DNA of 64,000 nt from a virus: positions 96,001 through 160,000 of IMG/VR virus record IMGVR_UViG_3300031669_000002. The stretch is one strand, 5' to 3'. The notes beneath the pieces were generated by a model. It was not told the DNA's origin, did not search any database, and saw only the letters and a program-made list of their open reading frames with translations. Positions 22,073-42,315 of this stretch are shown in pieces (position 1 is the stretch's first letter; the number at the start of each line of letters is the position of its first letter). The position numbers and the translations under genes are program-made.

Positions 22073-22107
22073 TCTTTCGTAGTAGGATAACCAGCATAAA
22101 TAAGAGT

Positions 22108-22932
22108 ATGAAAACAATACTCTTAAATATAATTAACGCTGATACTTCTTATAACAAGAATGCTACTCGATATCTCTATAAAACCCACCCGGACTTATGG
22201 AAGCAGGTAGTAGAAACTACTTGCTTTTTGCCAGAATCGGCGTTAGCCAAACAGCGAGTTTGGCACATTCTCAATGAGATATATGATATACCTAGATGTC
22301 CGATAACCGGAGAAGAAGTTAAGTGGTTTTGTAACAGATATTTGGGCACCGCAAATGTATCGGCCAGAACAACACTATTAAACAAATCTGGAAAACTAAA
22401 CAATCGATCAGAAGAAACTAATAAAAAACGATCAGACTCTAATAGAAAAACTGCTGAGGATGGATTAAGAAAGCCCTCTACTATTTCTGAAGAGACAATA
22501 AGACTTCGCACAGAAAAAGCCAAAGAGACTTGTTTAGAGAAGTATGGCGTAGATAACATAAGAAAGTTGCCTGCTATTATAAAGAAAATACAAAAGAAGA
22601 AATATGACTGGCATATTGCCAATGGTGGCACACCAAGAGAACAGAGACCGCTTAAAGATTTGTATTATGATGCAGTAAATAGATTCACCAAAGAAAGTTG
22701 GGTAAATTACTTCGACAAGATCAACCCTCAACGACTAAATCGTTCTGAGTTTCCGCTTGATCACATCTATAGCATTCACCAAGGATTTATGAATAATATT
22801 CCTCCATATATTATTGGACATTGGACTAACTTGCGTATTATCACGCTAATAGAAAACTCATCAAAGGGAAAACGATGCAGCAAGTCTCAAGAAGCATTGT
22901 TCAAAGATTTTTTTGCCAACATAGGTAAATAA
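22108..22932 (+). CDS. HNH-like homing endonuclease
   Basis: LDHIYSIHQGF...IGHWTNL...ENSSKG motif and CLEKYGVDN repeat; own late promoter at 22095. Confidence 0.8.
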   Translation: MKTILLNIINADTSYNKNATRYLYKTHPDLWKQVVETTCFLPESALAKQRVWHILNEIYDIPRCPITGEEVKWFCNRYLGTANVSARTTLLNKSGKLNNRSEETNKKRSDSNRKTAEDGLRKPSTISEETIRLRTEKAKETCLEKYGVDNIRKLPAIIKKIQKKKYDWHIANGGTPREQRPLKDLYYDAVNRFTKESWVNYFDKINPQRLNRSEFPLDHIYSIHQGFMNNIPPYIIGHWTNLRIITLIENSSKGKRCSKSQEALFKDFFANIGK

Positions 22933-37717: not shown

Positions 37718-37930
37718 ATGAAACAATATAAACTTACATCGGCAGATTTTGTATTGCCGGGAGAATCACTAGAACCAGATGCATATATGTCTGCAGAGGA
37801 CTTAGCATCAATTAAAAAACAAAATGAGTTATCTGGTTTTTTACATCAACAGATTGCAGATAGGCTTGCTAATCCTGTTGATCTTCCAGAAGCAAATACT
37901 ATAATTATTAGAGAGCAAAAATATGAGTAA
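37718..37930 (+). CDS. Small hypothetical protein
   Basis: Operon-packed; overlaps the TerL start. Confidence 0.65.
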   Translation: MKQYKLTSADFVLPGESLEPDAYMSAEDLASIKKQNELSGFLHQQIADRLANPVDLPEANTIIIREQKYE

Positions 37931-38585
37931 GATGCCGACAGAATCAGTATTGGTTAAGACACCACATAAAACTGAGTTCTATTCTCATCAGCACGTAGAA
38001 GAATTTATGAAGTGTGCAGATCCAATAACTGGACCTAACTATTTTATGACTAACTTCTTCTACATTCAGCATCCAACTAAGGGTAGATTGAAGTATGCTC
38101 CGTTTCCTTATCAGGTTCATTTGGCGCAATCATTTCACGAATATAGATTTAGTGTTAATCTTCTTTCCCGTCAATTAGGAAAAACAACTACAGCAGCAGG
38201 TTACTTGCTATGGTATGCAATGATGATTCCTGATAGCACGATCTTAATTGCAGCTCACAAATATACGGGCGCACAAGAAATTATGCAACGTATTCGTTAT
38301 GCGTATGAGTCAGTTCCCGATCATATTCGTGCTGGTGCAACAACCTACAACAAGGGAAGCATTGACTTTGATAATGGTTCAAGAATTATTTCAGCTACAA
38401 CTACAGAAAACACCGGTCGAGGATTATCAATATCATTATTATACTGCCTGGGTGGCGAAACAACTGTAAAAATTAGAGACAAAACTACATTGGTAGAAGA
38501 AGAAATATCTTTACAAGATTTGTATATCAGGCTATCTAATCCCGACAAAGTTCTAAATGACGAATTTGCATTCGTACATAAATAA
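37923..38585 (+). CDS. Large terminase fragment 1 (ATPase N-part, 174 aa) plus split intein 1 N-part (46 aa, from 38445)
   Basis: Walker A SRQLGKTT; ends SISLLY|CLGGETTVKI (intein block A) and then stops. Confidence 0.9.
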   Translation: MSKMPTESVLVKTPHKTEFYSHQHVEEFMKCADPITGPNYFMTNFFYIQHPTKGRLKYAPFPYQVHLAQSFHEYRFSVNLLSRQLGKTTTAAGYLLWYAMMIPDSTILIAAHKYTGAQEIMQRIRYAYESVPDHIRAGATTYNKGSIDFDNGSRIISATTTENTGRGLSISLLYCLGGETTVKIRDKTTLVEEEISLQDLYIRLSNPDKVLNDEFAFVHK

Positions 38586-38589
38586 GTAT

Positions 38590-39498
38590 ATGAAAACTAA
38601 ATTACAACAATTTAAAGAACGAAACAGAAAACGCAATGCCCATTTATACATTGATGGGCTAATAGAAGGGTACGATTATGTAGTTTGCCCTATTAGCAAG
38701 GAACGAATGAGTATGATTAAGAAATCATATATAACAAATGTGTTGGGTATTACAGAAGATGAATACCCAAATATACAGCGAGTTTGTCTAAAGAGGAAAG
38801 AGAATATTAAATCTGGGTTAAAACAAATTGATCTGGAAACTGGATTGACTAAACATGAGCTTAGTGTAGAAAAAGCAAAAGAAGTATTATCGGAAATTGG
38901 TAAAGATGGTATGTCGGGCTATGACCGCAAAGGTAAAAAGACTCGTGCCACGCATATGGCCAATATTGATGAACTAGGCAGGCATGGATATAGGCGGCAA
39001 GCAGATGCAAGGTTAACTACTCTTTTACCCAATGGACTTACAGTAGAAGAAAATGCACATCAGAAACAAAAAGAATCAATGCTAAAAAATCACTCTACTG
39101 GGTCTGGCGGTGCAAGTAAAATTTCTAAAAAAGTTCTAGCGCCGGTGATTACATTGCTCGAAGCGAACAATCTAAAATATTACTTTGATAAACAAGAATA
39201 TGGCATTAAGGACGCAGATACGGGCAATTATTATTTTTATGACCTAACTATTCCAGAATTACACATTGCAATTGAATATCAATCTGCCGCATGGCACTCT
39301 AACCCAGTATGGAAAGACAGTGTGTGGCAACAGTGGGCACCACCAAAAGGAAAAAGAAAAACTGCTAATGAATCGCTTGAATATGATTATAACAAAGCAC
39401 GATCGCTGTATAAACATCGTAATATAGTTACGCATTATGTATGGGAAGATACCGTTGATGCAGACGTAGAGAGGATATTATGTTTGCTGAAAATGTAA
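38590..39498 (+). CDS. Vsr-like (EDxHD-type) homing endonuclease between split-intein halves
   Basis: YFYDLTIPELHIAIEYQSAAWH; own late promoter at 38577. Confidence 0.75.
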   Translation: MKTKLQQFKERNRKRNAHLYIDGLIEGYDYVVCPISKERMSMIKKSYITNVLGITEDEYPNIQRVCLKRKENIKSGLKQIDLETGLTKHELSVEKAKEVLSEIGKDGMSGYDRKGKKTRATHMANIDELGRHGYRRQADARLTTLLPNGLTVEENAHQKQKESMLKNHSTGSGGASKISKKVLAPVITLLEANNLKYYFDKQEYGIKDADTGNYYFYDLTIPELHIAIEYQSAAWHSNPVWKDSVWQQWAPPKGKRKTANESLEYDYNKARSLYKHRNIVTHYVWEDTVDADVERILCLLKM

Positions 39499-40208
39499 AC
39501 TACGAAATCTTAACTCCCGACGGATGGCGAGATTTCCGTGGGATTACCATGACAGAGAATAAGATAACCTCGACGGTTATCTTAGACAATGGGATCTCAA
39601 TTTCTGCAACTGATAATCACTATTTCTTTTTAGATGGACAAAAAATACAACTTAAAGATATTGTTGTAGGTAATAAATTTGATACCGTTAATGGTAAGGC
39701 AACAGTTCTTTCAATTAATACCAACAAAGCAGAATGTGTATATGATATTGTTGAAGTAGATCAGCAAGAACATAAGTTTATAATTAATGATTCTATTATC
39801 ACAAAGAATTGTGATGAATTTGCATTCGTAAGAAACACAATTGCGAAAGAATTTTGGACTTCAATTTCTCCAACATTATCAACAGGTGGTAAGGCAATTA
39901 TTACATCAACTCCAAATAGTGATGAAGATCAATTTTGGGATATCTGGACAAACGCAAACAAGACGCTAGATGAATTCGGGAATGAACAAGAGTTAGGAAA
40001 AAACGGATTTAAGGCATTCAAGGCACTGTGGCCCGAGCACCCAGATAGAGATGAAAAATGGGCAGCAGACGAACGAGGTAGAATTGGAGACGAGCGTTTT
40101 CGTCGAGAACACGACTGTCTGAGCGCAAAATCAATCATAACATTGCAAGACACAACAGGCAAAATATTTGATATAAATATTGGCGATTTCTTTGATCAGC
40201 ATAAATAA
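39480..40208 (+). CDS. Split intein 1 C-part (110 aa) + terminase fragment 2 (102 aa) + split intein 2 N-part (30 aa)
   Basis: Block B SATDNH; ITKN|CDEFAF (Walker B); coupling motif ITSTP; RFRREHD|CLSAKS then stop. Confidence 0.9.
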   Translation: MFAENVNYEILTPDGWRDFRGITMTENKITSTVILDNGISISATDNHYFFLDGQKIQLKDIVVGNKFDTVNGKATVLSINTNKAECVYDIVEVDQQEHKFIINDSIITKNCDEFAFVRNTIAKEFWTSISPTLSTGGKAIITSTPNSDEDQFWDIWTNANKTLDEFGNEQELGKNGFKAFKALWPEHPDRDEKWAADERGRIGDERFRREHDCLSAKSIITLQDTTGKIFDINIGDFFDQHK

Positions 40209-40244
40209 CTTTGCATAATAACGATTTTAGAGAGAACATTAAGT

Positions 40245-41249
40245 ATGGGCGCAGCTTATAGAGAATCAAAATTAGACAATAATCGATATTGTAAGTCAAA
40301 CGGTCAATTTACTCGACATCTTCGGTTAAACAACTTAACATACCAAGAATATTTTGAAAAATATATAACCAAGACCAGCCCAAAATGTCAATGCGGTAAG
40401 CCACTAACTTTTTATCAGAAAACCGAATCATATGCCAATAGTTGCGGTATCCCAAAATGTGTAGGCAAAACAATAAGTATTGTTCGACAAAACACACCAA
40501 TCGAAGCAAAACAAAAACAAGCAGAAAATTATAGACAAGCACAATTCAACAAGACTACAGAACAAAAGAAGAAACAGAAAGAAAAGGCAGCAGCAACATA
40601 TTTTAAGAATTTTGGGACTACCACGTCAAACTCTCCTGTACAGAAAAAGAAATCGGCGCAGACAAAACTACAAAAATATGGAGATGAAAAATATAACAAC
40701 AGTCAAAAAAGTGCAGATAAGAATAGAAACAAATCAATTGAAGAACAAGATGCAATTAATGAATCTCGACGAAAAACTAATATTGAAAAATATGGTGTTT
40801 CTTGTGTATTTTTATTGCCTAACAATACCAGAAAATCAAATAAAGGTAATGCATCGATTAAAGATTATGTAATGCCAAGTGGTGTTAGGGTCGGGGTAAG
40901 AGGATACGAGCCAACAGTAATATCAATATTACTTAATCAAAGACACATAGATGATATAGTTATTCAAGACGCCTATTCAGATTGTAAGATTGGACCATTT
41001 ACTTATAGTATGATAAATAGACATACTGCAAACTATTATCCAGATATCTATATACCGTCAGAAAATAAAATCATTGAAGTCAAAAGTAGATGGTGGTGGG
41101 ACGGAAACGGAAAAGAAAAGTATAAATCGAGATTATTAAATAATCTAAGAAAAAGAAAAGCGGTATTAGATAAAGGATACATATACGAAGTCTGGCTATT
41201 TGAAGATAAGAAAAATTATAAGGTTTTAATAGATGACTCAGATTTTTAA
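40245..41249 (+). CDS. PD-(D/E)xK homing endonuclease between split-intein halves
   Basis: YYPDIYIPSENKIIEVKS and KYG repeats; late promoter at 40200. Confidence 0.75.
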   Translation: MGAAYRESKLDNNRYCKSNGQFTRHLRLNNLTYQEYFEKYITKTSPKCQCGKPLTFYQKTESYANSCGIPKCVGKTISIVRQNTPIEAKQKQAENYRQAQFNKTTEQKKKQKEKAAATYFKNFGTTTSNSPVQKKKSAQTKLQKYGDEKYNNSQKSADKNRNKSIEEQDAINESRRKTNIEKYGVSCVFLLPNNTRKSNKGNASIKDYVMPSGVRVGVRGYEPTVISILLNQRHIDDIVIQDAYSDCKIGPFTYSMINRHTANYYPDIYIPSENKIIEVKSRWWWDGNGKEKYKSRLLNNLRKRKAVLDKGYIYEVWLFEDKKNYKVLIDDSDF

Positions 41250-42315
41250 ACCAAACACAGAACAATATAAAGTTCTTACTCCAACAGGATTTCAACATTT
41301 TTCGGGAGTATCATTGATGACTTATAAATCAATGATTAGACTCAATTTTGAAAACGATAAATTTATTGATTGCACTGCTGATCACAGAATCTATGTGTCT
41401 GACATTAAATCTAAGCAGGCATGTAGATTGCGCCGTGGTGAAGAAGTGCTAACAATTGACGGAAGTGTCAAATTACTGAATAAGGTAAAATTAAAGGATA
41501 AAGTTCCTGTATATGATCTGATTGGTGTCGAAAACGGAGCAAGATTTTACGCTAATTCTCTTCTTGTTTCCAATTGCGAGCCAATCATATTTGAAGAGAC
41601 TCTTATTAATGCAGTTAAATTATCAACGCTAGTAGAAAAAGATCCAGTTGAGAAACAGGGGCAAGTTAGATGGTATAAAACTCCTAAGAAAGGCTGCACT
41701 TATCTAATTGGATTAGATCCAAGCTTAGGCACTGGTGGAGATTTTGCGGCAATGGAAATAATCGAACTCCCGTCGATGGAACAAGTAGGAGAATGGCAGA
41801 ATAACAAGACTCCCATTCAAGCGCAGATTAGGCTATTACGTGACATCACTGATTATATATTTGATATAACAGGCAACACAAAGAATATCTATTACAGTGT
41901 AGAAAATAATACACTTGGTGAAGCAGCATTGGTGGCAATAAGCGAAATAGGGGAAGAGAACATTAAGGGATATTTCCTAACAGAGACTCTTAAAGCAGGT
42001 TCTTCTAGATCATATAGAAAAGGATTTACTACGACTGCTAAATCTAAGCTTACGGCCTGCTCCAAAATCAAACAGTTAATAGAGACAGACCGCATCACTA
42101 TAAATAGTAAAAACCTAATTAGCGAACTTAAAACGTTTGTTGCAAGCGGAAACACATACAATGCTAGATCTGGAGACACAGACGACTTAGTTTCTGCACT
42201 ACTTCTAACAACAAGAATGATGCAAACGATGCAATCTTACGATTTAGAGTTAGATACTCGTATGAGAGGCACAGATGAGCCAATAGTTATGCCACTTCCA
42301 TTCCTAATGGGATAA
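41233..42315 (+). CDS. Split intein 2 C-part (114 aa) + terminase fragment 3 (RNase H-like nuclease, 246 aa)
   Basis: Block B CTADH; LVSN|CEPII; IGLDPSLGTGGD, VENN and TDDLV nuclease motifs. Confidence 0.9.
   Translation: MTQIFKPNTEQYKVLTPTGFQHFSGVSLMTYKSMIRLNFENDKFIDCTADHRIYVSDIKSKQACRLRRGEEVLTIDGSVKLLNKVKLKDKVPVYDLIGVENGARFYANSLLVSNCEPIIFEETLINAVKLSTLVEKDPVEKQGQVRWYKTPKKGCTYLIGLDPSLGTGGDFAAMEIIELPSMEQVGEWQNNKTPIQAQIRLLRDITDYIFDITGNTKNIYYSVENNTLGEAALVAISEIGEENIKGYFLTETLKAGSSRSYRKGFTTTAKSKLTACSKIKQLIETDRITINSKNLISELKTFVASGNTYNARSGDTDDLVSALLLTTRMMQTMQSYDLELDTRMRGTDEPIVMPLPFLMG

Follow-up and report, generated by a model that had tools for sequence, protein, structure and literature searches.

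Gene fracture by split inteins and free-standing homing endonuclease genes (HEGs) has a published model. Dassa, London, Stoddard and Pietrokovski (2009, Nucleic Acids Research; PMC2677866) proposed that the 5′ end of an invading HEG supplies a stop codon and its 3′ end a methionine codon. They also reported TATAAATA late-promoter elements in the 5′ regions of 10 HEGs, overlaps of 6–69 bp between the HEG and the C-terminal intein part (IntC) in 15 loci, a split intein in a terminase gene whose IntC is unusually long, and Vsr-like HEGs. Atypical split inteins of the phage terminase TerL form a related body of work (Thiel 2014; Bachmann and Mootz 2015; Stevens 2018, PDB 6DSL; as summarised in PMC11766414). 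AceL-TerL, GOS-TerL and Cat-TerL are alike in their phage TerL host gene, in a short N-terminal part (IntN) of 25–37 amino acids (aa) and in a long IntC of about 104 aa (PMC11766414). Here we describe a TerL gene interrupted twice by inteins of this kind, each with its own HEG, in 64,000 nucleotides (nt) of viral DNA (the window: positions 96,001 to 160,000 of IMG/VR record IMGVR_UViG_3300031669_000002). The window is part of a 178-kb viral contig, estimated to be 51% complete, from a relative of the PA5oct/Rak2-like jumbo phages that shares about 68% DNA identity with PA5oct in TerL.

We consider it probable that this TerL gene is doubly fractured in an old layout that was inherited and homed as a unit, with the late promoter of each HEG packed tightly onto the end of the IntN frame. 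TerL is spread over three open reading frames (ORFs; 37923–38585, 39480–40208 and 41233–42315), and HEG1 and HEG2 lie in the gaps. At both sites an IntN-bearing gene, a HEG and an IntC-bearing gene follow one another on the same strand within one host gene, which is the arrangement that defines a fractured gene. The features of the locus are as follows.

37923–38444, + strand: TerL extein 1, the N-terminal ATPase part, ending ...SISLLY just before Walker B (Pfam Terminase_6N, E 4e-8)
38445–38537, + strand: functional core of IntN1 (31 aa, Cys1 ... DLYIRLS), which aligns with CatN (PDB 6DSL_A)
38538–38576, + strand: non-intein tail of the IntN1 ORF, a linker (NPDKVLN) followed by an 18-nt copy of the extein 2 start (38559–38576, DEFAFV codons)
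38577–38585, + strand: CATAAATA late-promoter-like motif plus A; the last two motif bases and this A form the IntN1 stop TAA (38583–38585)
38590–39498, + strand: HEG1, a free-standing Vsr-like nuclease gene with its ATG 5 nt past the motif (AlphaFold/Foldseek; matches phrog_22677)
39480–39809, + strand: IntC1 (110 aa, block B TDNH, ending ...ITKN; CatC, PDB 6DSL_B, E 8e-7)
39810–40115, + strand: TerL extein 2 (Cys+1, Walker B DEFAFV ... RREHD; Terminase_6N); 39813–39830 is the original of the 18-nt repeat
40116–40205, + strand: IntN2 (30 aa, Cys1 ... GDFFDQHK), with counterparts of its end in L002 and in 23 further loci
40200–40208, + strand: second CATAAATA motif plus A, giving the IntN2 codons His-Lys-stop
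40245–41249, + strand: HEG2, a free-standing DUF7487/PD-(D/E)xK-type nuclease gene (Pfam DUF7487, E 5e-27)
41233–41574, + strand: IntC2 (114 aa, block B TADH, ending ...LVSN; CatC, PDB 6DSL_B, E 3e-8)
41575–42315, + strand: TerL extein 3, the nuclease domain (Pfam Terminase_6C, E 1e-6)

The three exteins form one unbroken gene in 79 of 80 related viral contigs, and they are uninterrupted in the closest relative (L001; 82–92% amino-acid identity). This contiguity places the intein insertion points at ...SISLLY/CDEFAFV, in Walker B, and at ...RREHD/CEPIIF. Elsewhere in the intein family, a contiguous intein directly after ...DEFAFVA in L239 marks a third Walker B insertion point adjoining site 1, and other clades carry an insertion at ...MDE/CAF.

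Both inteins have the hallmarks of the atypical split type: IntN cores of 31 and 30 aa, TDNH or TADH in IntC, Cys1, and junctions of ...KN/C and ...SN/C. IntC1 and IntC2 each match CatC, the consensus atypical TerL intein, at the E-values listed above. They are also homologous to one another (E 9e-8) at about 23% identity. Residues 2–30 of IntN1 align weakly with CatN (E 0.44), and the end of CatN corresponds to ...DLYIRL. We therefore take the functional IntN1 to be about 31 aa long, with the last 15 codons (NPDKVLN DEFAFV HK) as a tail. This tail is comparable to the C-terminal extension of the GOS-TerL IntN, which is 37 aa long and can be trimmed to 27, so that its extension is dispensable (PMC11766414). 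IntN2 found no match in a search of PDB sequences; it terminates at the CatN end, and its length equals that of the Cat/AceL-type IntN. Judged by their sequences, both inteins are members of the AceL/GOS/Cat-TerL atypical split family, and their halves would be joined by trans-splicing.

The two HEGs are distant relatives at best (E 0.29), and searches of PDB sequences with each returned no match. HEG1 has no Pfam match. Its AlphaFold model, built from an 11-sequence alignment (pLDDT 79), has as its best Foldseek matches Vsr (1CW0, prob 0.99), AbaSI and the catalytic domain of I-Bth0305I (3R3P, prob 0.93, TM 0.56 on the target). On this predicted fold HEG1 belongs to the Vsr-like HEG family of Dassa et al. 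(2009) and is a putative site-specific nuclease. In HEG2, D267, E278 and K280 are invariant across a 9-sequence alignment (a D...ExK core), and the model gives weak PD-(D/E)xK fold matches to Hjc resolvases, PA endonuclease and 3R3P.

At their 3′ ends the HEGs run into the IntC genes, as a first-pass annotation of the window had pointed out. The end of HEG1, which most likely starts at ATG 38590, overlaps the IntC1 start (39480) by 19 nt, and that of HEG2 (41249) overlaps the IntC2 start (41233) by 17 nt, an overlap kept in L002. IntC1 is preceded by a GAGAGG Shine-Dalgarno sequence. A predicted hairpin at 39460–39487 (-9.8 kcal/mol, z -1.7) lies within the 3′ end of HEG1 and spans the Shine-Dalgarno region and AUG of IntC1; it could tie IntC1 translation to ribosomes finishing HEG1.

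At their 5′ ends the HEGs adjoin the IntN frames. The same annotation had reported that both frames close on identical codons, and this can be read directly: IntN1 ends ...GTA CAT AAA TAA (38577–38585) and IntN2 ends ...CAG CAT AAA TAA (40200–40208), with both stops in frame. It had also noted that the motif precedes most HEGs in the window, and this is borne out by at least 10 HEG-like ORFs beginning 4–47 nt 3′ of a copy (starts at 22108, 25264, 38590, 40245, 47921, 54738, 55520, 57520, 58449 and 62179). These include GIY-YIG, DUF7487-like and HNH types.

Several observations connect this motif, [C/T]ATAAATA, to late transcription. CATAAATA occurs 13 times in the window, always on the + strand, against 6.2 copies expected over both strands together; counting TATAAATA as well, there are 19 copies, 19/19 on the + (coding) strand. 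Across the whole contig, 33 of 38 motif copies are followed by a same-strand ATG ORF starting 4–102 nt downstream. The motif also stands 5′ of late genes, among them those for a baseplate wedge subunit, a head-tail adaptor and a tail-fibre-like protein. It lies 16–47 nt 5′ of GIY-YIG HEGs and of structural genes with AGGAG ribosome sites of their own, and it is often intergenic, where no reading frame ends. Outside the window, a 302-aa ORF (G000:C1, about 77.86–78.77 kb) matches late sigma factor families (phrog_12791, E 2e-79; phrog_234, E 3e-21) and T4 gp55 (tblastn, E 2e-5). In the related phages CBB and GAP32, ATAAATA has been predicted to be a late promoter, and a gp55-like factor was noted there (PMC5259590). 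The motif is thus very probably a T4-type late promoter, an octamer without a -35 element, and the first-pass view of it stands insofar as strand bias, late-gene association and a gp55-type factor can establish T4-like behaviour.

Some copies sit close to the gene they precede. The ATG follows after 4–5 nt, without a Shine-Dalgarno sequence, at motif copies 22095, 38577, 54726, 58436 and 60594 in the window and 55352 and 85549 in the genome, and the HEG1-type loci of relatives show the same spacing, without a Shine-Dalgarno sequence in 24 of 25. If the octamer is a T4-type promoter, an ATG only 4–5 nt past it means that these HEG mRNAs would be leaderless. The idea that the short-spacing HEG-like ORFs represent one paralogous cassette was rejected, as they come from several unrelated families. 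RNA folding of 38545–38625 (z -1.8) and 40185–40265 (z +0.2) gave no regulatory hairpin 5′ of the HEG starts better than shuffled sequences. An extra TATAAATA octamer lies within the IntN2 coding sequence at 40172–40179, 20 nt 5′ of the CATAAATA at 40200, and may be a tandem promoter or chance.

The octamer has a simple consequence for any reading frame that enters it. The register nAT AAA TAn gives a stop whenever A or G follows, the register xnA TAA gives one regardless, and only the third frame reads through. Because two of the three frames are stopped, no in-frame landing is needed to end an IntN at the motif, contrary to the first-pass proposal that a HEG cassette landed in frame.

A comparison of site-2 relatives shows both stopping registers in use. 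Of the 24 distinct IntN ends compared at site 2, the nAT-AAA-TAA register (that of the window) accounts for 9, nA-TAA-ATA for 3 and a TAAATA variant for 2; those that remain mostly have another HEG type or no HEG. The IntN of L002, for example, ends ...GDLFNLV (TTG GTA TAA ATA), where a one-base shift of the octamer puts its internal TAA in frame as the stop. The motif stays within 3 nt of its position in the window, and small indels put the octamer 6, 7 or 9 nt from a conserved IntN2 Phe codon. Where the HEG has been deleted, the octamer has decayed and the stop has been kept (GATGAATAATAG in L149, GACAAATGA in L221/L257). With registers that vary and an octamer that decays upon HEG deletion, the site-2 stop thus sits in a HEG-tied element that is conserved as DNA and not as codons. 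In L084 an internal deletion of the HEG has left a 3′ remnant and the octamer is retained, and in L240 IntN is fused in frame to the last HEG residues. L084, L149, L221/L257 and L240 can be viewed as stages of HEG decay in a fractured gene, with the IntC start overlap preserved throughout.

Site 1 is organised differently. More than 1200 metagenome proteins (200–225 aa) share the extein 1 plus IntN1 architecture with a conserved IntN1 core, and their C-termini fall into a short class (...NPxKII, then E, T, G, R or V) and a long class (...DEFAFV, ...DEFAFVHK, ...DEFGFVDK or ...DEFGFVDEKDK). Nearly all of 69 viral contigs carry GAyGArTTTGCnTTTG-TATAAATA after IntN, followed by 4–5 nt and the HEG ATG. 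A one-base frameshift in the short class brings the TGA of gTGAcGAG into frame, so that translation ends within the string that encodes DEFAFV. Among 43 distinct site-1 ends, the stop precedes the octamer in 24 and falls inside it in 3, and the other 16 lack an octamer within 42 nt. The IntN stop of most site-1 relatives lies about 20 nt 5′ of the motif. The HK-stop ending of the window is a minority solution at site 1. The earlier claim that the promoter supplies the IntN stop describes the window and most site-2 relatives, but not the site-1 relatives, where most frames stop in the extein copy.

This extein copy at 38559–38576 is a direct repeat of the extein 2 start (39813–39830) that matches at 17 of 18 nt, a score reached by 0 of 2000 shuffles. 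It separates the IntN1 loop from the promoter, which therefore does not itself adjoin the loop. The copy precedes TATAAATA in 25 distinct relatives (among L081–L149), either in frame or shifted by one base, and this conservation whether or not it is translated favours a function at the DNA level. The N-extein side is absent from it: identity there is 6.6/21, equal to 15 control offsets, and only the GT of the Cys+1 codon matches. A copy spanning the whole empty homing site was therefore rejected, the similarity being confined to the C-extein side. Nor does the copy evolve in concert with the extein 2 of its own genome (identity 14.9/18 within the same genome against 14.6/18 with others). In the HEG2 leader an extein-like copy is not significant in the window (p 0.16) and is significant only in L104 (p 0.008).

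A homing-site-like sequence thus abuts HEG1's own promoter. The closest precedent is the operator of I-TevI, which matches the homing site at 15/20 nt and overlaps the late promoter of the I-TevI gene itself (Edgell et al. 2004; PMC2988022). By analogy, and as a tentative proposal on which we would not lean heavily, the conserved extein copy of 18–19 nt might be an operator through which the Vsr-like HEG1 represses itself; HEG1-type mRNAs would be leaderless, and IntN1 would merely read into this region and stop where its frame allows. Alternatively, the copy may be a recombination relic.

The distribution of the intein family bears on when the splits arose. A single-sequence scan of viral contigs with IntC1 gave no match; family members of IntC were found by a degenerate DNA pattern search, which gave 126 matches, and a member was called split if an in-frame stop lay within 40 codons 5′ of the ILTPxGF motif. 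By this definition 116 of 126 are split in the same loop, across several TerL sites and several TerL clades, and the split point in the window coincides with that of CatN/CatC. Six members are truly contiguous (L171, L172, L182, L239, L250 and L259). On a tree built from 96 distinct IntC cores each stands alone and apart from the others, so that five state changes are required; with 101 columns and many unresolved forks, the tree is too short to choose between one splitting and several. Parsimony favours a split ancestor with occasional re-fusion. Each site is fractured in many diverged phages, so that the fractures were evidently inherited: on this distribution the layouts at both sites were acquired already fractured and were not created in this genome. 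One close pair was considered as sisters separated by HEG insertion, split L258 (2590–2625) and contiguous L259, and was rejected. L258 carries a 15-nt insert (ATAACTAAATGCCAC...) that gives a stop directly and then an ATG, without a HEG.

We favour an account in which two atypically split inteins each carry a free-standing HEG between a short IntN and a long IntC. Each HEG would be driven by its own T4-type late promoter, read by the gp55-like sigma factor, and this promoter would be packed directly against the end of the IntN frame, where any frame that enters the motif usually stops. IntC would be made from the same late transcript as the HEG, from a start codon inside the HEG 3′ end. The CAT AAA TAA endings would then be a consequence of tight packing and not a record of two splittings in this genome. 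The first-pass annotation had read them as such a record: a promoter-carrying HEG cassette would have entered the N-terminal loop of a contiguous intein in frame, twice independently, with the TAA of the promoter making the split. The identical nine bases that end both IntN frames, the barely detectable relationship of HEG1 to HEG2, the existence of contiguous family members and a site-2 stop that nearly always falls within the motif are all as this scenario would have them. We nonetheless regard it as unlikely, since both sites are fractured in many diverged relatives and the event must long predate this genome, the split point is that of CatN/CatC and of 116/126 family members, the extein copy parts IntN1 from the promoter with just 3/43 site-1 relatives stopping in the motif, and registers vary among relatives in a way that makes the frame uncritical. 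A birth of split inteins twice at this locus is therefore not upheld.

Another explanation, which we judge decidedly unlikely, holds that the motif is no promoter but a stop-restart or cassette-boundary signal, in which a TAA and a nearby ATG couple HEG translation to the upstream frame. The short motif-to-ATG spacing without a Shine-Dalgarno sequence suits it, both in the 24/25 HEG1-type sites and at 22095, 58436 and 60594. It accounts poorly for the copies that lie 16–47 nt ahead of genes with their own AGGAG sites or between genes where no frame ends, for site-1 IntN frames that mostly stop some 20 nt ahead of the motif, and for the gp55-type sigma factor that the phage encodes. Coincidence, with AT-rich intergenic DNA ending both frames on the same codons, gains something from a genome of 39% G+C in which TAA-rich strings are common; set against a strand-exclusive enrichment and a motif that dozens of relatives keep in the corresponding position, it is very improbable. 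The account of inherited fractures and tightly packed late promoters has difficulties of its own. Most motif copies start with C and the T4 consensus starts with T: on the + strand CATAAATA outnumbers TATAAATA by 20 copies to 7. The omics study of PA5oct reported only sigma70-like promoters, and promoter activity is here a prediction from sequence. The distance between HEG1 and HEG2 would fit either separate invasions or HEG replacement, and the scattered contiguous inteins leave room for repeated independent splitting in a sole permissive loop.

In genomic terms the locus clearly exemplifies the fractured-gene model of 2009, one essential packaging gene being fractured twice. It also illustrates that a T4-type late promoter can double as a translation terminator in two of three frames, which is relevant to the annotation of split genes and inteins in phage metagenomes. 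By-products of the analysis are a large natural set of atypical split inteins with a short IntN, potentially useful for protein ligation tools, a conserved homing-site copy at a HEG promoter that may be an operator, and HEG mRNAs that may form a leaderless class. Of all the features described, the promoter-adjacent extein copy and the 4–5-nt spacing from motif to ATG most merit experiment.

Comparison with described systems places these features in context. In T4, I-TevI likewise has a partial homing-site copy at the T4-type late promoter of a HEG (15/20 there, 17/18 here), but it resides in a group I intron, whereas HEG1 is a free-standing Vsr-like gene in a split intein whose self-repression is putative. 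The nrdA gene of Aeh1 (Friedrich 2007; Gibb and Edgell 2007, as cited in PMC2988022 and PMC2677866), is alike in that insertion of a HEG, mobE, divides an essential gene. It is alike, too, in its late-promoter and translational control and in a HEG coding region that overlaps the downstream gene part; it differs in having no intein, its gene pieces assembling non-covalently. Closest are the fractured genes of Dassa et al. (2009; PMC2677866). Judging from the passages of that paper used here, the two have in common split-intein halves that flank a free-standing HEG on one strand, a T4/Aeh1-type TATAAATA in the HEG 5′ region, and overlaps between HEG and IntC (6–69 bp there, 17 and 19 nt here). 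A regulatory hairpin is reported there and is not convincing here. The mechanism that the first-pass annotation had presented as new, with a stop from the 5′ end and a methionine from the 3′ end of the HEG, is the one those authors had already published. The stop inside the promoter octamer is absent from those passages, and it adds a minor new point to an established mechanism and opens no new one. The TerL gene described here further differs from the fractured genes of 2009, as presented in the same passages, in carrying two fractures within a single gene.

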